Assembly: GCA_044224215.1 (NCBI GenBank)
Contig: JBGAKX010000004.1
Span: 7,709 to 71,708 of the forward strand
Direction: 5' to 3'
DNA from: Blastocatellia bacterium
Lineage (GTDB): Bacteria; Acidobacteriota; Blastocatellia; UBA7656; JADIYM01
Length of the DNA: 64,000 nucleotides
A program made the translations under genes and the position numbers. The notes beneath the pieces were generated by a model. That model ran no database searches, was not told the origin of the DNA, and worked only from the letters and a program-made list of their open reading frames with translations. Shown piece by piece: positions 53,600 to 63,498 of this stretch. Position 1 is the first letter of the stretch. Each line of letters starts with the position of its first letter.

Positions 53600-54511
53600 T
53601 TACGCGTCGCGATCCGCGACCGCTTCGCGCAGCCGGTTCTCGAGAACGCGCGACGGCGAGAACTCCTGCATGCGCAGGTAATGGGCTGCGGCCGCGAGCA
53701 TGGCGTCGTCGGGAATCAGACCGATGAGCTCGGTCGACAGGATGCCGACCCCGCGGGTCTCGGCTTCGTGGCGAACGGCGTCGAACGCGACGTGTATCGG
53801 CGTCACAAGATAGTTCACGAGATTCATCGAGACCTGCACGCGGTCGCGCGACCGGATCTCGAATCCGAGCGCCTTGATGAACGGCACGCCGCCCGAGCTG
53901 AATCTCACGGCACGCGCGATCGCTCGCGCAACGGTGATGTCGTTTGTATCGAGCAGCACGTTGAAGGCGATCAGGGGGCCGCGCGCGCCAACCGCCGTGA
54001 TCCCGGCCGTCGGGTGGACCCTCGGGAGGCCGACGTCCGGCGCGCGGCGCGGAACTGCGCCGATCTCGTCGCGGATCCTCTCGAACTGTCCGCGCCTGAG
54101 GTCCGCGAGGTTCCGGTGTTCAGGCACGCGCGCCGACGCTTCGTAGTAGTACACGGGCACGCCGCATTCGTGCCAGATTCGCTCGGCGACACGATGCGAC
54201 GATTCCACGCACTCCGCCATGGTCGCTCCGTCGAGCGGCACGAACGGCACGACGTCGGCGGCGCCCATTCGGGGATGCGCGCCCTGGTGGCGAGTCAGGT
54301 CGATCAACGCGACGGCCCGGGCGACGCCGCGGAACGCGGCCTCCTCGACCGCAGCCGCATCGCCGGCGAATGTGACGACCGACCGATTGTGGTCCGCGTC
54401 GGACTCGCGACGCAGCAGCAGAATTCGGGGCACGGACGCGATCGCGCCGACGATGTCGTCGACGACGTCGTGATTGCGGCCCTCGCTGAAGTTCGGGATG
54501 CACTCGATCAC
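53600..54511 (-). CDS. ftcD: Glutamate formiminotransferase (formiminotransferase domain of FTCD)
   Basis: IECIPNFSEGR, DADHNRSVVT, HQGAHPRMGAADVVPFVP, VGARGPLIAFNV, VQVSMNL; GTG start preceded by TACAAT. Confidence 0.93.
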   Translation of the reverse strand: MIECIPNFSEGRNHDVVDDIVGAIASVPRILLLRRESDADHNRSVVTFAGDAAAVEEAAFRGVARAVALIDLTRHQGAHPRMGAADVVPFVPLDGATMAECVESSHRVAERIWHECGVPVYYYEASARVPEHRNLADLRRGQFERIRDEIGAVPRRAPDVGLPRVHPTAGITAVGARGPLIAFNVLLDTNDITVARAIARAVRFSSGGVPFIKALGFEIRSRDRVQVSMNLVNYLVTPIHVAFDAVRHEAETRGVGILSTELIGLIPDDAMLAAAAHYLRMQEFSPSRVLENRLREAVADRDA

Positions 54512-54590
54512 GCGCGGTATTGTAAGCCACGCAACGCGCGATTCCATCTTGACGCGCGGCTGTCCGGACACGGACAGTACGGCCGAGGCA

Positions 54591-56408
54591 ATGATGACCG
54601 CGAGCGACGAAACGCAGACGCCGGACACTGGCGACGATGCGGCGAATGCGCCAATGGCCCGGCTTCGGGCCGCGCACGCCGAGTCCGACGGGTTCGAGCG
54701 CGCGTTTGTGTATGGCGTCTTCGTCCTGATGGCTGTGGGCGTGCTGTGGTACGTGTGGGAATACGGCCGCAACCTGCCGTTCTGGGACGACTGGGAATAC
54801 ATCCCCGTCCTCAGCGGCAACCAGCCGTTCAGTCTGCAATGGCTGTGGACGGCACAGAACGAGCACCGGATGCCGCTCGAGCGGCTCGTCATCTTCATCG
54901 TCTGGCGAACGCTTGGCGACATTCGCGTCGTCATGGTGCTCGCAAACCTCGTCGTTGCGGCACTCGCTCTCTGGTTGATGGAGACCGTGCGCCGGTATCG
55001 CGGGCGCGTGAGCTACACGGACGCCTTCATTCCTCTCGTGCTCCTGCATTGGGGCATGTGCGAGAACATGATCTTCGCGATACAGATCTTCTTTGTGATG
55101 GCGCCAGCGCTTGCCATGTCGATCCTGCTCGTCGCGCTGACGCAGTGGCATGGCCGGATCGCTCGCGTCGTCGCGATCAGCGTGATGCTCGCGCTGCTTC
55201 CGATGCACGGTGCGATCGGTCTCACGCTGCTGCCGGCCATGTTGGCGTTCGTCGCGTACCTCGGCGTGTCACGGCTCCGCTCGGGTGACCTGCACGGTCG
55301 TCGCGATGCGCTCGTGCTGCTTGCGGGATGCGTCGCTGCCTCGCTCGTTGCCGTGCTCTACTTCGTCGACTTTCATCGAATACCGAGCCATCCGGGCATG
55401 CGGTCCGCGGGCGGCGTCGTGCGAACCGTTGCGGAGGTGCTCAGCCTTGCGATCGGTCCCGGCATTCAGTCGATGTGGCCCGTCGCGGCCGGCGGGGTCG
55501 TCGTGGCCGTCGCGGCGGCCGTCATATTTGCCGCTGCTGTTGCGTTCGCGCGGCCGTCCGATCGCGAACACGCGATCGCGCTGCTCGCCGCGATGGCCGC
55601 GTTTGCGCTGCTGATCGTCGCGGTTGGGTACGGCAGATCCGGGTTCGGGCCGGGACAGGGCTTTTCGTTCCGTTACGCGATCTTTGCGGCGCCGCTTCTG
55701 TGCTGCGCCTACCTGTCCATCTCGATGTTTGCAACCGACGCGCGCGGACGGTTTGTGCGCACCATGCTGCTGCTGGCGATCGTGACTGTTCTGCCGGCGA
55801 ATACGCGCATCGGAATTACATACGGGATCGATCGCGCGGACCGCGCCGACGTCCTGACGGCGGCGATCGACGCCGGGGCGCCGCCCTCGGTTGCCGCCTC
55901 GCGCAGCTGGGACCGCGTGTATCCCGATCGCGACGTGCTCGGCGAGCGGCTCGAAATGCTGCGGGCAGCCGGGTCCGCGCCGTATCGCGGCCGCGTCGAT
56001 GGAGATCGCCAGGTACGATACCGCGAGGAGGCTCTGCCGCTCGCGGTCGTGGCGGCGAACCAGGCGCACGTCGCCGACGGTCAGGTGATCGGCGACGGTG
56101 AGGATCCGTACGTCGTGTATCAGCTTCCGGCTCCGGAGTACGTCTGCGGAGTGCGGCTCGAGTATGCGGTCACGAATGACGCCAGTGTGCCGCCCGAGAT
56201 GCAGGTCTTCTGGAGCCTGTCGAGCCACTTCGATTTCGCGGAGGGCCGCAGATCCGAGGCATTCACGGTTCCCCAGGGTCCGGACACCCGCGAGACGACG
56301 GTCTGGATTTATGACACAATCGACCGGATGCGAATCGACCCGGACCGCCGTCCGTGCACGTTCAGGCTTGTGAGGGCAACATTGCTGTTACGGGAGACCA
56401 ACGAGTGA
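54591..56408 (+). CDS. Polytopic membrane protein, probable GT-C-fold glycosyltransferase with a C-terminal periplasmic beta domain
   Basis: About 12 TM; acidic PFWDDWEY loop after TM1; NEHRMP; overlaps a GT2 gene. Confidence 0.6.
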   Translation: MMTASDETQTPDTGDDAANAPMARLRAAHAESDGFERAFVYGVFVLMAVGVLWYVWEYGRNLPFWDDWEYIPVLSGNQPFSLQWLWTAQNEHRMPLERLVIFIVWRTLGDIRVVMVLANLVVAALALWLMETVRRYRGRVSYTDAFIPLVLLHWGMCENMIFAIQIFFVMAPALAMSILLVALTQWHGRIARVVAISVMLALLPMHGAIGLTLLPAMLAFVAYLGVSRLRSGDLHGRRDALVLLAGCVAASLVAVLYFVDFHRIPSHPGMRSAGGVVRTVAEVLSLAIGPGIQSMWPVAAGGVVVAVAAAVIFAAAVAFARPSDREHAIALLAAMAAFALLIVAVGYGRSGFGPGQGFSFRYAIFAAPLLCCAYLSISMFATDARGRFVRTMLLLAIVTVLPANTRIGITYGIDRADRADVLTAAIDAGAPPSVAASRSWDRVYPDRDVLGERLEMLRAAGSAPYRGRVDGDRQVRYREEALPLAVVAANQAHVADGQVIGDGEDPYVVYQLPAPEYVCGVRLEYAVTNDASVPPEMQVFWSLSSHFDFAEGRRSEAFTVPQGPDTRETTVWIYDTIDRMRIDPDRRPCTFRLVRATLLLRETNE

Positions 56409-57145
56409 CCGAGCCCCGGAACGAAACGGTGTCGGTGCTGATCCTCGCGCACAACGAGGCCGAGAACCTGGCGGAGCTGCTTCCGTCGGTGCGCGAGATC
56501 ATCGAATCCGAGGCCTTTCCCTTCGAGATCATCGTCGTGGACGGCGGTTCGGACGACGACACGCGCGGCGTCGCGCACGAACGGGGCGCTCGCGTCGTTC
56601 GGCAGGTGCTGCCGGGATACGCGAACGCGTTTCGCGAGGGACTGGCGGAGTGCTCGGGCGACCTCGTCGTGACGCTCGACGCCGACCTGTCGCATCGGCC
56701 CGGATTCGTCGCTCAACTGCTCGCCGCACGGCACGACGCCGAGATCGTGATCGCGTCCCGCTACGTGGCCGGCGGGGGCGCGGATATGCCGTGGACGCGA
56801 AGGGCGTTGAGCATCCTTCTCAACCGGACGTACACGCTGCTGCTCGGGTTGCGTTTGTCGGATGTTTCGAGCGGGTTTCGACTCTACAACCGCCGCGCGC
56901 TCGCGATGCTGACACCCCACGGCCGGCATTTCGACATCTTGCCCGAAATCGTCGTACTCGCCGCGCTGGCCGGGTGCAGGATCGCGGAGATCCCGTTTCA
57001 TTACCACCCCCGGGAGGCCGGCGTCTCGAAGGCGAGGGTGATGAAGTTCGGGCCGTCGTACGTACAGACGCTCGTGCGGTGCATGCGCGCGCGATGGCGC
57101 ACCGCGCCGCACCGGCACGAGACCTCGTCGGAGATCGCACCCTAG
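56405..57145 (+). CDS. GT2 polyprenol-phosphate glycosyltransferase (DPM1/GtrB-like)
   Basis: LAHNEAENL, VVDGGSDD, TLDADLSH, IASRY, DVSSGFRLY, EIPFHY; GTGA overlap. Confidence 0.9.
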   Translation: MTEPRNETVSVLILAHNEAENLAELLPSVREIIESEAFPFEIIVVDGGSDDDTRGVAHERGARVVRQVLPGYANAFREGLAECSGDLVVTLDADLSHRPGFVAQLLAARHDAEIVIASRYVAGGGADMPWTRRALSILLNRTYTLLLGLRLSDVSSGFRLYNRRALAMLTPHGRHFDILPEIVVLAALAGCRIAEIPFHYHPREAGVSKARVMKFGPSYVQTLVRCMRARWRTAPHRHETSSEIAP

Positions 57146-58423: not shown

Positions 58424-58641
58424 GGAATTGTCCGGGCGATTCTAATGCACGCGCCGGTTGCGGAACACCTCTGCCGGAATTGACTCTCGGATGTGAGAGG
58501 CACAGTATGGCCGCAATCACTCATGGCGAGCGTTCCGTCGAGTCGCAGGCGCGTTCGGCACGACGTCCGGCGCGCTTGAGGCAACCACGACGCCCGTCGA
58601 CTCAAACCTTGAAACGGCTGGGGATCAGACGGAGGTATGTG

Positions 58642-58908
58642 ATGGATGCGGATACGGATTTGGCATTGCTGCGTTCTCGTGTTGTGTATCTCGAGGGCAT
58701 CCTGTGGTCTCTCGGAAAACTCCTGACGGGCGTCAAGGTTCCAAACGGCAGCACGGGACCCGGCACGCCACCGACCTCAGCTGACATGGACACGGCCCTC
58801 GCGGCGTTCGGATCGGCACTGTCGGGCCGCAGCGGCACCGGCTGCCCGCCGTGGTGCAACATCGACAACACCGCGCTCAACCGGCCCGTGGACTGGCCGA
58901 CGTACTAG
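58642..58908 (+). CDS. Small protein A (88 aa) with a GTGCPPWC motif
   Basis: GGAGG RBS 6 nt before the ATG; clear homology to the next ORF. Confidence 0.75.
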   Translation: MDADTDLALLRSRVVYLEGILWSLGKLLTGVKVPNGSTGPGTPPTSADMDTALAAFGSALSGRSGTGCPPWCNIDNTALNRPVDWPTY

Positions 58909-58981
58909 CCCTGAACACGCTGCCATTCGTTCACACGATCACTCGATAACGAACGCCGCCTTCGCGGACGAGGAGACCCGT

Positions 58982-59305
58982 ATGCCAACAATCGAACAGC
59001 GCGTTCAATTGCTCGAAGACAAGATAGACATTCTCGAGGACATCCTCTTCTCCCTCGGCAGGGCGCTGAAGCTCGGCGAGGCGCCGGCCGAGGCCAACTG
59101 GACGGCGCGTCCCGGCGGCGTGGCCGCCCTGCAGACGATCGACGACATCCTGTTCACGATCGGGAGCTACCTGGCGGACAGGACGCTTGCCGAACGGGTG
59201 GCGCTCGGACGCGGGACGAGCTGTCCACCTGTCTGTCCGAATCCGGTCAACATCGAGGCAGCCGTCGTGGCGAATGCTCGGCGGGTCAGGAAGCCGAAGC
59301 GGTAG
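58982..59305 (+). CDS. Small protein B (107 aa) with a GTSCPPVC motif, paralog of A
   Basis: GAGGAG RBS; homologous to 58642-58908; its 3' end overlaps the convergent kinase by 20 nt. Confidence 0.78.
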   Translation: MPTIEQRVQLLEDKIDILEDILFSLGRALKLGEAPAEANWTARPGGVAALQTIDDILFTIGSYLADRTLAERVALGRGTSCPPVCPNPVNIEAAVVANARRVRKPKR

Positions 59306-62300
59306 AGACGACGACGACGTCGCTGGTGACGGTGCCTCGCACCGTGACGAGCGCGCCGTTCCTCGCGTCGAACGTGAAGATCCTGTCCGACGGGAACGAC
59401 GTCACGCGGCGCGCGGGACCGCCCGGCGCCATCGACCGGATCTGTGACACGCCGTCGATGTCGTCGATGAAGAGCAGTTCGTGGCTGTCCGCGGACCATC
59501 GAATTCGCTGATAGTTCATTCGCGGAATCGACAGAATCGAAATATCAAATGCTTGCGCGGCACTCGAGCCGTCGAGCGGCATTACCGCTCCGCGAACGTG
59601 CGAATCGCCTTCCGTCTGCTGCGTGAAGACGACCCACCGGCCGTCCGGCGAGATCGCCGGCCAGTTTGCGTACGTCCCGCCGAGCAGCACCGTCCCCGAG
59701 CCGTCGAGCGCCTTGCGCCAGATCGACGCGCCGAGCTCCTTGTTGGTCTGACCCTGGTACACGAGCGATCGTCCGTCGGGCGACACTGCCGGGTACTCGT
59801 CGTCGACGTCCGCCGTGATCTGTTCAGGAACGCCCGCCACCTCCGCGTCGACTCTCCAAATATTGAAAGGGCCCGACCGGTTCGACGCAAAGTAGACGGT
59901 TCGATTGTCCGGCGCCATTGCAGGATCGCGGTCGACCGCAGCGTGAAACGTCAGCTGTCGCTGATTCTGGCCGTTGTCGTCGGCGACATAGACGTCAAAG
60001 TTCCCTGAGCGCCGGCTCGAATACAGGATGCGTCCGTCAGGCGTCCACGACGCGCCGAGGATTCGGTCATGCCCGACCGTGATCGGATGCGCATCGCTGC
60101 CGTCGGCCGCGTGCGACACCCACAGCGACTGATGGAACGCGGTCTGCACGGCCGCCATCCTGCCGTCGCGCGCAACCGTGACGCCGTCATAGCCGCTCGT
60201 GTCCTGCGTGATGCGCGATGCCATCCCGCTGGGGTACGCCACGCTCCACAGTTCCATGTCGCCGAGCGCCGCCGAAGCGACGGACGCGACGAGCGCATTC
60301 CCGTCGGGCAGCCACGCCACTCGGTCCACGTACCACCACGTGAGCGGCGTGATGAGGCGAAACGACGGGTCGCCGACGGTTATCTCCGCGATCCCGCCGC
60401 GGTAACCGTTCGAAGTGTCCGAGACCGAGCACGCGATCCGCGCGCCATCCGGCGACCACGACGGCGTCTCTTGCGCAAAAATGAGCGGTGTCGACGTCGT
60501 CCACAACGACCGCTCGCCGCTGCCGTCGGCATTCGCCATCATCAGGTCCGCATGCTTGCCGCTCTCGTCGCGCCGAATGAACGCAATACTCTCGTCTGTA
60601 GGCGAGATGGCGACACCACTGTCGGCGGCCATCACGACGGGTTGTGGCGATCCGCTCGGCAGCGGCAGCTTGTAGATCGTCGTCCCGCCCACGCTTTCCG
60701 ACGCACAGTAATAGATGGACTGGCTATCGTGGGTGAACGTGACATTGGAGAGCCATGCGTCGGACGGATCCGTGATGCGCACCTTTCCACTTCCGTCGAC
60801 CCGGCAGAGGTACAGGCTCATCGTGCCCTGCTCCTCCACCGCCGCCACGACCTGCGATCCGTCCGGCGAGATCGCCGCGTCGACCGCGTTTCCGGTAAAT
60901 GTGACGCGTCGAACGTCGGTGACGATGAAGCGCTGAGGTCGCTGGGTGCGGCCGATATGCAGCGCCGCCCACACGGCTCCGGCCGTCAACGCAAGCAGCA
61001 CGATCGCGCCGACGAGGCGCACGGCATTGATGCGCCACGCCCGACGAGGTGCGGGCTCCGGCACGAGTTCGATGACCGTCGTTGCGGTCGCCGACTTGAC
61101 GTCGAGCGCGGCTCGCAGGTCGCCGATGAACTGGCCGGCGCTTGCCGGTCGATCGGAGCGGGCTTTCTCGAGCGCGCGCGACACCGTCGCCGAGAACCTG
61201 CGCGGGACGGACGGATCGACCACGTGCAGCGGTTCGGGCGTCGCGACGAGGTGAGCGCGTCGGATCTCGCTCGAGTTGCGGCCGTGGAACGGCGTGGTGC
61301 CGCTGACGAGCTCGTAGACCACGACACCGAGGCTGTACACGTCGGCACGCGCGTCGATCTCGGGCCCGCCGTCCGCCGGCACGTCGCCCCACTGCTCCGG
61401 CGACATGTAATGCGGCGTGCCGATGACGTGGCCCGGCTGCGTCACGTTCGCTGCAGCCTCGAGCGGTTCGGCAAGGATCTCGCGCAGCTTGGCAATGCCG
61501 AGATCGAGCAGCTTGACGACGTGCTTGTCGTCCGGATCGGCGATCATGATGTTCTCGGGCTTGATGTCGCGATGCACGATCCCCTGCGAATGCGCCTCGT
61601 CGAGCGCATCGGCGACCGGTCCAAGCAGTTCGACGGCCCGCGCCGGGGTCAGCCTGCCGTGCTGCTCGCACTCTTCGCGCAGCGTCGGTCCGTCGACGAA
61701 TTCCTGAACCATGTACGTGAGCCCGTCGGCCGACGTGCGCAGGTCGTAGACCGTCACGATGTTCGGATGCTGCAGCGTGCGCGCGACCCGGCCCTCGCGC
61801 AGGAAGCGCTCGAGCCGCTCGGGCTCGGACGTGAGCTGGCGACGCAGGACCTTGAGCGCAACGTGATCCCTCAACAGCGCGTGTTGCGCGAGATAGACGT
61901 ATCCGAAGCCACCGCCCTTGATGAATCGCTCGACGTGGTAGAGGCCGTCGATCGTCGTCCCGACGAGCGCTTCGGGGTCGTCGACGAGAACTTCGCCGTC
62001 ACGGGGACACACGAGCTCGCCGGAGCTGAAGTGGCCCGAGCACTTGGGACAGACGCGGATCTGGCTCGACGAACTGTCGGCAGCCGAGCGCACCGCTGCG
62101 TTGAGGTCGGCGCCGTCCGCGAGCCGTGTCGAACCGGTAATCACGGGACCGCCGAGCAAGCTGTCGGTCTGCTCGTCCGCGGCGAGGAGCGTGAGCACTT
62201 CGCGCTTCAGGTCCTCGTTGCCGCCGCACTCGCGATCGAGATACGGAATCCGATCGTCCGACGCGAGCTCGACACACGCGTGAAACAGCCGCTTGACCTG

Positions 62301-62318
62301 TTCCCAGTCGGTGGCCAT
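59286..62318 (-). CDS. Membrane Ser/Thr kinase with an ECF-associated N-terminal helical domain, a Cys4 knuckle and a TolB-like (PD40) beta-propeller
   Basis: WEQVKRLFHAC...EDLKREVLTLL; CPKC-x9-CPRDG; [26 protein letters not shown]; TM; repeats ISPDG/WSPDG/WTPDG; start coupled (TGATG) to the sigma gene (GTG 62321 is an alternative). Confidence 0.92.
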   Translation of the reverse strand: MATDWEQVKRLFHACVELASDDRIPYLDRECGGNEDLKREVLTLLAADEQTDSLLGGPVITGSTRLADGADLNAAVRSAADSSSSQIRVCPKCSGHFSSGELVCPRDGEVLVDDPEALVGTTIDGLYHVERFIKGGGFGYVYLAQHALLRDHVALKVLRRQLTSEPERLERFLREGRVARTLQHPNIVTVYDLRTSADGLTYMVQEFVDGPTLREECEQHGRLTPARAVELLGPVADALDEAHSQGIVHRDIKPENIMIADPDDKHVVKLLDLGIAKLREILAEPLEAAANVTQPGHVIGTPHYMSPEQWGDVPADGGPEIDARADVYSLGVVVYELVSGTTPFHGRNSSEIRRAHLVATPEPLHVVDPSVPRRFSATVSRALEKARSDRPASAGQFIGDLRAALDVKSATATTVIELVPEPAPRRAWRINAVRLVGAIVLLALTAGAVWAALHIGRTQRPQRFIVTDVRRVTFTGNAVDAAISPDGSQVVAAVEEQGTMSLYLCRVDGSGKVRITDPSDAWLSNVTFTHDSQSIYYCASESVGGTTIYKLPLPSGSPQPVVMAADSGVAISPTDESIAFIRRDESGKHADLMMANADGSGERSLWTTSTPLIFAQETPSWSPDGARIACSVSDTSNGYRGGIAEITVGDPSFRLITPLTWWYVDRVAWLPDGNALVASVASAALGDMELWSVAYPSGMASRITQDTSGYDGVTVARDGRMAAVQTAFHQSLWVSHAADGSDAHPITVGHDRILGASWTPDGRILYSSRRSGNFDVYVADDNGQNQRQLTFHAAVDRDPAMAPDNRTVYFASNRSGPFNIWRVDAEVAGVPEQITADVDDEYPAVSPDGRSLVYQGQTNKELGASIWRKALDGSGTVLLGGTYANWPAISPDGRWVVFTQQTEGDSHVRGAVMPLDGSSAAQAFDISILSIPRMNYQRIRWSADSHELLFIDDIDGVSQIRSMAPGGPARRVTSFPSDRIFTFDARNGALVTVRGTVTSDVVVVSTASAS

Positions 62319-62893
62319 CACTCAGCCTCGGCGCCGGAAATCGCGCGATGCAGCCACGCGCGCGCGAGCCGCCACTCGCGTTCCACGGTGGCCGTTCCAA
62401 CGTCCAGCACCTCGGCGGTCTCGGAGATCGTCAGCCCGCCGAAGTAGCGCAGCTCGACCACGCGGGCCAGCCGTTCGTCCGTCGCCGCGAGCGCGTCGAG
62501 CGCATCGTTGAGCTCGATGACCTCGACGTCGAACTCGTGAGGAACGGGGAGGTCTTCGTCGTATGTCACGCGCACGAGTGCGCCCGCACGCTTGCTCGCG
62601 CGATGCCGGCGCGCGTGGTCGACGAGCGCCTGGCGCATCATCCGCGCGGCGATCCCGAGAAAATGCGCCCTGCTCTCGGGCTGCAGCCCGCTCTGGTCCG
62701 CGAGCTTCAGATACGCCTCATGCACGAGAGCGGTGGGTTGGAGCGTGTGGCCCGCACGTTCGCCGCGAAGGTAGCCGGCGGCCATGCGCCGCAGTTCCGA
62801 GTAGACCAGCGGCATCAGCTCGTCGAGGGCGGTCCTGTCCCCGGCGCGAAGCTGGTCCAGCAACCGCGTCACGTCACTGTCGGTCGTCCGCAT
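62318..62893 (-). CDS. ECF-type RNA polymerase sigma factor (TIGR02999-like, kinase-associated)
   Basis: DVTRLL...GDRTALDELMPLVYSELRRMA, HTLQPTALVHEAYLKL, VVELRYFGGLTISETAEVL, WRLARAWL. Confidence 0.93.
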   Translation of the reverse strand: MRTTDSDVTRLLDQLRAGDRTALDELMPLVYSELRRMAAGYLRGERAGHTLQPTALVHEAYLKLADQSGLQPESRAHFLGIAARMMRQALVDHARRHRASKRAGALVRVTYDEDLPVPHEFDVEVIELNDALDALAATDERLARVVELRYFGGLTISETAEVLDVGTATVEREWRLARAWLHRAISGAEAE

Positions 62894-63039
62894 TGCCGTA
62901 GGCACCGGAATCGGTTCTCGTGACCAGACTCCCCCTGGTCTGATGGAGACCGGCTTCGATTATCGCTCTACCCAATGAGGGGATCAAGTAGGCGCCGCGA
63001 CAGGGACGCGGCCGGTCCACCAACAAGGAGGTATGGGTG

Positions 63040-63498
63040 ATGAATACGATTCAATCCGTCAGCAACGTTGTCCGCCGTGTCGCACTTGCAGCGATGGCGG
63101 CCAGTATCACCGTGGCGGTTGTCGCGGCTCCCGCATTCGGGCGGTTGCACAACCAGATCCGTGTCACGATTCCATTTGCGTTCAGCGTGGGCAAGACGGC
63201 GATGCCGGCGGGTGAATACACCGTGCAGGACATTGCCAATGGCGCGCTTCACGTGAAGTCGATGAAGGGCGACGAGTCGACGATCGCACTCGGTCGGCTC
63301 GAGACCGAGGAGATTCCTGCCGAAGGCACGCCGACGCTGGTCTTCAACCGGTACGGCTCGGAGTGTTTCCTTTCGGAAGTCCGCACGGGTTGGGACCAGA
63401 GCGTCTACAAGTTCCGGGCGACGGCTATCGAAGAGCGGCTCGCTCGCGAGGGCAACGGCCCGGGCGAAGTCCTGCTCGTCAAGGCCACCATTCGGTAG
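63040..63498 (+). CDS. Secreted beta-rich protein of unknown function
   Basis: AAGGAGG RBS; signal peptide; IRVTIPFAFSVGKTAMPAGEYTV...TLVFNRYGSECFLSEV; GTG 63037 is an alternative start. Confidence 0.8.
   Translation: MNTIQSVSNVVRRVALAAMAASITVAVVAAPAFGRLHNQIRVTIPFAFSVGKTAMPAGEYTVQDIANGALHVKSMKGDESTIALGRLETEEIPAEGTPTLVFNRYGSECFLSEVRTGWDQSVYKFRATAIEERLAREGNGPGEVLLVKATIR

Follow-up and report, generated by a model that had tools for sequence, protein, structure and literature searches.

Two small cysteine-pair genes converge on a receptor kinase gene

We analyzed a 64-kb stretch of the genome of an uncultured Blastocatellia bacterium (contig JBGAKX010000004.1; 64,000 nucleotides (nt), here called the window), in which a first-pass annotation had singled out two neighbouring open reading frames (ORFs), A and B, as diverged duplicates encoding small proteins with a coiled coil and a conserved cysteine pair. 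Both ORFs run toward a gene for a receptor Ser/Thr kinase on the opposite strand, beyond which lie a gene for an extracytoplasmic function (ECF) sigma factor and, divergent from it, a gene for a secreted protein (Table 1). We are confident that A and B are real genes of a new protein family that is tied in gene order to the kinase gene. This descriptive part covers what we observed at this locus and its relatives, namely coding status, selection, family, internal repeat, promoter and synteny.

Table 1. Features of the A-B locus and of the adjoining kinase and sigma factor genes, in window coordinates (aa, amino acids)
Feature	Position	Strand	Description
Sigma-70-type promoter, TTGACT, 17 nt, CAGTAT	58480-58508	+	Recognized by cross-locus comparison
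5' untranslated leader, about 127 nt, inferred	58509-58641	+	Ends in GGAGG; transcription start inferred
Ribosome-binding site of A, GGAGG	58631-58635	+	From the sequence
Small protein A ORF	58642-58908	+	88 aa; type ending CPPWC...RPxxWP
CPPWC codons of A (residues 68-72)	58843-58857	+	Invariant alignment columns
A-B spacer	58909-58981	+	73 nt; no promoter of the conserved type
Ribosome-binding site of B, GAGGAG	58970-58975	+	From the sequence; inside the 73-nt A-B spacer
Small protein B ORF	58982-59305	+	107 aa; second type, CPP(V/I)CP then basic tail
CPPVC codons of B (residues 81-85)	59222-59236	+	Invariant alignment columns
Receptor Ser/Thr kinase	59286-62321	-	1011 aa; Hanks-type kinase domain after an N-terminal segment, then a single membrane helix and a PD40 beta-propeller
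ECF sigma factor (PF07638, 2.7e-56)	62318-62905	-	Stop overlaps kinase start by 4 nt
Candidate promoter of sigma-kinase operon, TTGATC, 17 nt, GATAAT	62959-62987	-	In a block of about 33 nt that is also conserved in the sister genus
Secreted protein	63037-63498	+	153 aa; signal peptide; divergent from ECF sigma factor; no Pfam match

A and B are genuine genes under purifying selection

The coordinates given for the two ORFs proved exact, and we located the strong ribosome-binding site that had been reported for each. We then compared A and B to their orthologs on two metagenome contigs, L037, which has both genes (A 81% and B 90% identical), and L003, which has the B ortholog only (68% identical). 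The ratio of nonsynonymous to synonymous substitution rates (dN/dS, Nei-Gojobori) is 0.17 for A and 0.29 for B against L037 and 0.39 for B against L003, which is not near 1, and the differences between orthologs pile up at third codon positions. The G+C content at third codon positions (GC3) is 0.78 in A and 0.81 in B, compared with 0.82-0.83 in the flanking genes. The low dN/dS, the third-position bias and the host-like GC3 together indicate that A and B are coding and native to this genome, and we conclude that they are genuine genes under purifying selection. That the ORFs are untranslated and owe their conservation to a DNA or RNA element is hardly credible, given these values, the ribosome-binding sites, and a protein motif that stays invariant across members only 20-30% identical to each other.

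The divergence from L037 is uneven along the operon. The central part of A (58650-58830) is 31% diverged, with 38 of its 62 differences at third codon positions, compared with 5-12% in the leader, in the last part of A, in B and in the flanking genes. This pattern suggests that the central part was imported or replaced by recombination, or is an old allele, and not that the protein evolves faster.

A and B align to each other in BLASTP with 26 of 81 residues identical (E 3e-9), and this alignment traverses all three of the blocks that the first-pass annotation had drawn by eye: helix 1 with ILxSLG, helix 2, and G-T-x-C-P-P-x-C. The third block contains the only two Cys residues of each protein. 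His is absent from both, and neither sequence has a hydrophobic N-terminus or a stretch resembling a membrane helix. The absence of a signal peptide and of any additional Cys, as claimed for both proteins, is thus borne out.

A previously undescribed family confined to one group of Acidobacteria

Word-indexed searches gave only few relatives of A and B. A HMMER profile search covering 1.84 billion representative proteins returned seven matches in its first round, including four distant small proteins (P0009, P0010, P0011 and P0013), and the second round enlarged the family to about 30 sequences. One profile match, P0012, a phage-tail-like protein of 1702 aa, was rejected as a coiled-coil artefact. 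In an alignment of 23 sequences, the invariant columns (in B numbering) are L11, L18, E19, C81, P82, P83 and C85. Two further members carry CPVWC instead of the C-P-P-x-C of the 23 aligned sequences, which reduces the core motif to C-P-x-hydrophobic-C. The spacing of the cysteines is C-x3-C in every member, and nearly all members have exactly two Cys; most are acidic (isoelectric point 4.2-5.1). Apart from the cysteines, no ligand-type residue (His or Met) is conserved in the family alignment. The relatives that the first-pass annotation had called for are therefore there, and they conserve the Cys pair.

A, B and other members of the family had no significant match in Pfam, NCBIfam, PADLOC or PHROGs, and a sequence profile search of the PDB found generic coiled coils only (E at least 0.23). 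The nearest candidate in these libraries was DUF6907 (PF21848), which we rejected: 4 of the 23 members match it weakly (best E-value 0.033), and the one member that we scored reaches 13 bits against a gathering threshold of 26 bits, over the CPPWC stretch only (profile positions 9-30 of 116). A literature search for "CPPWC" returned conotoxin papers only, and one for "DUF6907" returned nothing. By these comparisons the family is previously undescribed, in agreement with the first-pass annotation; it is important to point out that "new" here means that it matches nothing known, rather than that a new system has been demonstrated.

All known members come from one group of soil and sludge Acidobacteria, represented by metagenome-assembled genomes of uncultured Blastocatellia, that is, one bacterial family and its close metagenome relatives. 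The gene is present in all five genomes of the window's GTDB family (Blastocatellia, Acidobacteriota), in one or two copies per genome; the copy in genome G004 carries PKCPPWCPINSP. Among 55 other relatives from the same order and class we found chance-level matches only (E > 0.01), and scans of metagenome and genome collections with a B-type profile gave no additional members.

We found that A and B fall on different branches of this family. In a maximum-likelihood tree, A joins the single-copy proteins of the sister genus (support 93/88), with which it has in common CPPWC followed by RPxNWP, and B joins P0009, P0011 and P0013 (support 83-88); B-type members do not have the RPxNWP tail. The tree is built on short sequences with long branches and is indicative only, and it suggests that A and B represent two old subfamilies and not a recent duplicate. 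Other lineages have a single type at the same locus, and the simplest reading is that of an ancestral tandem pair followed by differential loss; alternatively, A may have been imported by recombination. The earlier description of a diverged duplicate family under selection for its Cys pair thus stands as far as the selection is concerned, with the low dN/dS and a pair that is invariant in the 23 aligned sequences, and has to be revised in that the duplication is not a local, recent one. In the copy of genome G002 (L029, 6001-6289), the small gene is split across frames by two compensating 1-nt deletions. The name of the contig points to long-read assembly, for which reason we attribute the deletions to assembly error and not to decay into a pseudogene.

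Each protein is a duplicated helical unit

Helix 1 comprises four heptads with 7-8 hydrophobic residues at a and d positions. The first-pass annotation had noticed an internal repeat in B (EDILFSLG / DDILFTIG), and this repeat holds for the whole family: profiles of the N-terminal and C-terminal units match each other in hhalign with a probability of 95% (E 3e-8), and the match sets 'APxExNW' of the first unit against CPPxC of the second. Nearly all members keep the Cys pair in the second unit only. The exception is P0010, the only member with two motifs, which also retains a CPPLC after its first helix, so that CPPLC follows both helices. The half-to-half match and the double CPPLC of P0010 show that each protein consists of two tandem copies of a unit, about 40 residues long, made up of an amphipathic heptad helix, ILYSLG-xx-L, a short linker and CPxΦC (Φ, hydrophobic), and that the first copy has usually lost its cysteines.

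From the family alignment, AlphaFold2 models two helices in each protein, at residues 3-29 and 46-61 in A (predicted local distance difference test, pLDDT, 63) and at residues 4-31 and 50-65 in B (pLDDT 58), and predicts that the tail behind them, which bears the Cys pair, is disordered. A Foldseek search with the model of A returned nothing below E 4.

A conserved sigma-70-type promoter precedes the small genes

A generic scan of the locus for promoters and terminators returned a single weak terminator-like site, on the minus strand, and no promoter; the conserved promoter was recognized only by comparing loci. Upstream of the small gene, we found the pattern TTGAC(T/A)-N17-(G/C)A(C/G)TAT-G in the window, L037, L003, L023, L019, L020, L027, L028 and L029, and L024 has the same pattern with an 18-nt spacer. 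The spacer sequence varies freely among loci. Because the spacer varies and the pattern lies in different reading frames in the two genera, it is a signal at the DNA level rather than part of a coding sequence. The 64 kb of the window contain a single occurrence, upstream of A, against 0 expected by chance. The A-B spacer has no promoter of this pattern, and A and B therefore probably share one transcript. The leader is about 5% diverged from L037, versus 10-12% in the coding flanks, and a search of the locus against Rfam gave no family match, only a sub-threshold ybhL. We also observed a perfect palindrome, CTCTC-GGATGT-GAGAG (58484-58499), in the promoter spacer of the window and L037, absent from L003 and the sister genus, which could be an operator site.

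The small gene stays with the kinase gene

The kinase gene next to B matches the Pfam families Pkinase (1.5e-43) and PD40 (1.8e-28), and it converges on B with the 20-nt overlap (59286-59305) that the first-pass annotation had reported. The ECF sigma factor encoded upstream of the kinase has LQPTA (LQPTALVHEAY) at the place where kinase-linked sigma factors of the ECF43 group have a QTTA phospho-threonine motif, with Thr in place of the acidic motif of sigma-2.2 (PMC13147305). These neighbouring genes fit an ECF43-type sigma factor and Hanks-type kinase module; we call it "ECF43-like" by motif and gene order. The sigma factor is found at the same position, 80% identical, in three sister-genus genomes, and the block as a whole has the conserved order secreted protein, ECF sigma factor, kinase, small gene.

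We examined 13 loci (the window, L037, L003, L021, L022, L023, L024, L019, L020 and L026-L029). In all 13, the small gene lies tail-to-tail with a PD40 gene, their stop codons being separated by anything from a 20-nt overlap to a 28-nt gap. On contigs of sufficient length, this PD40 gene proves to be the C-terminal part of a gene for a Hanks-type kinase that has a single membrane helix. The PD40 genes of these loci are orthologous to the kinase gene of the window, with 40-60% identity along their full length. L003 is apparently rearranged or chimeric upstream of the propeller and was left out of the question of sigma factor versus kinase. The other side of the small gene is more variable: in the window, L003, L021, L023 and L024, a gene for a HutI-like amidohydrolase lies upstream, whose place is taken in the sister genus by a deoxyhypusine-synthase-like gene and in L022 by the end of an ORF that resembles a carbohydrate-binding module (by eye only). 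The recurrence of an ECF-linked kinase gene, which the neighbourhood analysis had been meant to look for, was thus found.

Genome G001 of the sister genus (L018, L019 and L026) separates the kinase from the sigma factor. Its cognate ECF sigma factor is gone genome-wide, the best remaining paralog being 56% identical, and the secreted protein is gone from the locus; what the genome keeps is the kinase and the small gene. An ISL3 transposase is located close by. This bears on the proposal of the first-pass annotation that the small proteins are an output of the sigma-kinase pair, that is, members of the ECF sigma regulon. Such a role would fit a gene that adjoins the sigma-kinase operon and, in the window lineage, has a GGAAC motif just upstream of its -35 box. 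However, GGAAC is not conserved in the sister genus, the two genera have a conserved sigma-70-type promoter in common, and the small gene outlives the cognate sigma factor in G001, all of which makes membership of the regulon improbable. On the evidence of its own sigma-70-type promoter and of its persistence in G001, the conserved link of the small gene is with the kinase gene and not with the sigma factor.

We also considered whether A and B might be exported as disulfide-bonded peptides for the kinase to sense with its periplasmic PD40 propeller. Propellers of the PD40/TolB type have short disordered peptides as ligands, and the A-type tail, (D)GSGPSVRPxNWP, presumably recalls the TolB-binding box of colicin E9, a likeness that we take as a lead only. 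The conserved Cys pair, the conserved RPxNWP tail of the A-type subfamily, the predicted disorder of the tail and the position of the propeller beyond the single membrane helix would all suit such a role. Nevertheless, signal peptides and lipoboxes are absent from all members, as are upstream extensions that could supply one, the conserved block holds no exporter gene, the RPxNWP tail is missing from the B type, and the block already contains a separate secreted protein. Export therefore seems to us unlikely. That secreted protein is 42% identical (E 6e-41) to the gene at the same position in L027 and L029, with sizes of 153-166 aa, and is itself a candidate sigma factor target or periplasmic partner of the PD40 domain. 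In the conserved block of about 33 nt between its gene and that of the sigma factor, a promoter of the sigma operon and a divergent promoter of the secreted-protein gene may overlap.

A further proposal was that A and B are precursors of a ribosomally synthesized and post-translationally modified peptide (RiPP), with a helical leader, a Cys core and, since no maturase lies in the window, modifying enzymes encoded elsewhere. The conserved N-terminal helices, the C-terminal tails that vary around fixed Cys residues, and the Ser/Thr just ahead of the Cys pair in A and B are what one would expect of such precursors. On the other hand, no radical-SAM, YcaO, lanthipeptide-synthetase or peptidase gene adjoins the loci examined for maturases by gene content (L003, L019, L020, L021 and the window), nor does the conserved block there hold such a gene or one for a transporter, no leader of the NHLP or Nif11 type was matched in NCBIfam, the genomes have one or two copies each, and selection extends over the whole length, including the second helix. 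We consider a RiPP precursor very unlikely.

Two further observations concern the neighbourhood. Residues ~90-115 of the kinase, before the kinase domain, read CPKC-x10-CPRDG, a three-Cys half zinc ribbon that the sister-genus kinase ortholog keeps as CPRC...CPVDG. In addition, 54474-56408 (+) of the window encodes a 644-aa multi-pass membrane protein without a Pfam match, upstream of a family-2 glycosyltransferase (56354-57145).

A tentative role on the cytoplasmic side of the kinase

ECF sigma factor and Hanks-type kinase modules are widespread, and to our knowledge few of their inputs and accessory factors have been described. We tentatively propose that the small proteins form a coiled-coil oligomer with an interchain Cys site that modulates the adjacent kinase or is its substrate; oligomerisation, a metal or redox site and an interaction with the kinase are the parts of this mechanism that we infer. 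The cytoplasmic helical hairpins would associate as a coiled coil, giving homo-oligomers in most species and possibly A/B hetero-oligomers here. In this coiled coil, two or more chains would each contribute a Cys pair to an interchain thiolate site, and the site would bind a metal (Zn, Cu(I) or Fe-S) or heme, or make a reversible disulfide. Because the proteins have neither a signal peptide nor a membrane helix, we expect them in the reducing cytoplasm, which would favour a metal site over a structural disulfide. An oligomer held together through the Cys pairs, as the first-pass annotation had suggested in the form of a disulfide-linked hetero-oligomer or filament, would be a plausible arrangement. 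The small protein would then work in the kinase pathway from the cytoplasmic side, either modulating it or serving as a substrate.

Several points weigh against a role of this kind. The AlphaFold2 monomer models of A and B are of low confidence (pLDDT 58-63), which we take to be common for proteins that fold only as oligomers, and the library searches gave no match to a metal-binding or kinase-binding family. The small gene is convergent with the kinase gene and not co-transcribed with it. Genomes of the window's family have exactly one kinase-PD40 gene of this type each, always with the small gene, whereas sister-family genomes have up to 19 such kinases, and none of the seven closest of these that we checked has the small gene beside it, so this type of kinase works without it. 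Moreover, the members come from one family and its close relatives, and the flanking amidohydrolase of close metagenome relatives is 75% identical; the adjacency could thus be simple inheritance.

It is accordingly about equally possible that A and B are lineage-specific small coiled-coil proteins (for example structural, stress or storage proteins) that work independently of the kinase and lie next to it by inherited gene order. A family limited to one GTDB family and its near relatives, a housekeeping-type promoter of its own outside the kinase operon, and same-type kinases of the sister family that lack the small gene are all in keeping with this explanation. What it does not readily account for is that the gene order has been broken at least three times upstream and once on the sigma factor side (G001), whereas the junction of small gene and kinase has never been broken, even where the small proteins are only 20-30% identical.

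A broader version of the role beside the kinase would make the small Cys-pair proteins a third component, not seen before, of ECF-sigma/Hanks-kinase signalling, in which the coiled coil and its interchain thiolate site (metal, heme or disulfide) gate the receptor Ser/Thr kinase, or are phosphorylated by it, and A and B are heteromeric. We regard this version as rather doubtful at present. A protein with a conserved Cys pair whose gene keeps to such a kinase gene would in itself provide a concrete, testable candidate for an accessory regulator or substrate and add a new cysteine-based small-protein fold, with the caveat that the family is narrow and belongs to one family of uncultured Blastocatellia.

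Comparison with known systems

We compared the family with known proteins that carry similar Cys motifs. The first-pass annotation had likened the motif to that of the Sco/SenC copper chaperones, and the CxxxC spacing is indeed shared, with the CPxxCP form in B-type members. The likeness ends with this spacing: A, B and the 23 members have no match to the SCO1-SenC or any thioredoxin-type domain, the models are two helices and a coil, no His column is conserved that could provide the distal third copper ligand, and the family proteins are small, helical and without a membrane anchor. The CxxC of thioredoxins and glutaredoxins differs in spacing from the C-x3-C found everywhere in the family, which also has no match to a thioredoxin-like domain. 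Zinc-binding anti-sigma factors (ZAS, HxxxCxxC) have a His that A and B lack and another Cys spacing, and no Pfam match connects them with the family. The small mitochondrial Tim proteins, which have one CX3C motif on each helix of a hairpin, are similar in size (about 90 residues), in their helix-loop-helix layout and in their CX3C, and P0010 even has two motifs. Yet all members except P0010 have a single CX3C, which lies outside the predicted helices, the Pro-Pro within the motif rules out the helical CX3C geometry of the Tim proteins, and the family proteins are cytoplasmic, bacterial and without homology to them.

The Rad50 zinc hook is a working analogy. In Rad50, a Cys pair sits on a coiled coil, and two chains share one Zn, by which two coiled coils are joined. 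The family likewise has an antiparallel helical or coiled-coil element, and each chain brings a single Cys pair that includes Cys-Pro, with no further conserved ligand; a four-Cys site would therefore need two chains. P0010 has one of its Cys pairs in the inter-helix loop, as in the hook. Unlike the CxxC of Rad50, the family spacing is CxxxC, and the pair mostly lies after helix 2 rather than at the apex; neither the PDB profile search nor Foldseek gave a sequence or fold match. Heme regulatory Cys-Pro motifs (e.g. those of Irr, HRI and Bach1), which we presume to be similar to the Cys-Pro of the family, offer another lead only. Here, too, the Cys-Pro is invariant, precedes a hydrophobic residue and lies in a disordered part of a protein that looks regulatory and, in our case, is encoded next to a kinase; the family differs in having a second invariant Cys three residues later.

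For a very small protein that is encoded apart from a kinase operon and could tune a receptor kinase, MgrB and SafA may serve as a model, as small membrane peptides that modulate the histidine kinase PhoQ. A and B are predicted to be soluble and their kinase is Hanks-type, whereas MgrB and SafA are membrane peptides acting on histidine kinases, so that the likeness is by analogy alone. We treat the Rad50 hook, the heme Cys-Pro motifs and MgrB/SafA as working analogies that may guide thinking about the family, not as memberships.

The neighbouring genes themselves can be compared with ECF43/Hanks-type kinase modules, namely PknT/EcfP of Vibrio and PknS/EcfK of Xanthomonas (PMC13147305). In common with these, the window has a PF07638 sigma factor gene directly upstream of a transmembrane Hanks-type kinase gene, and LQPTA at the phospho-site of sigma-2.2. 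The published account describes the kinase-sigma pair only, treated as a two-component arrangement, and includes no small Cys-pair protein (PMC13147305). PknS has tetratricopeptide repeats (PMC13147305), whereas the extracytoplasmic domain of the window's kinase is a PD40 propeller.

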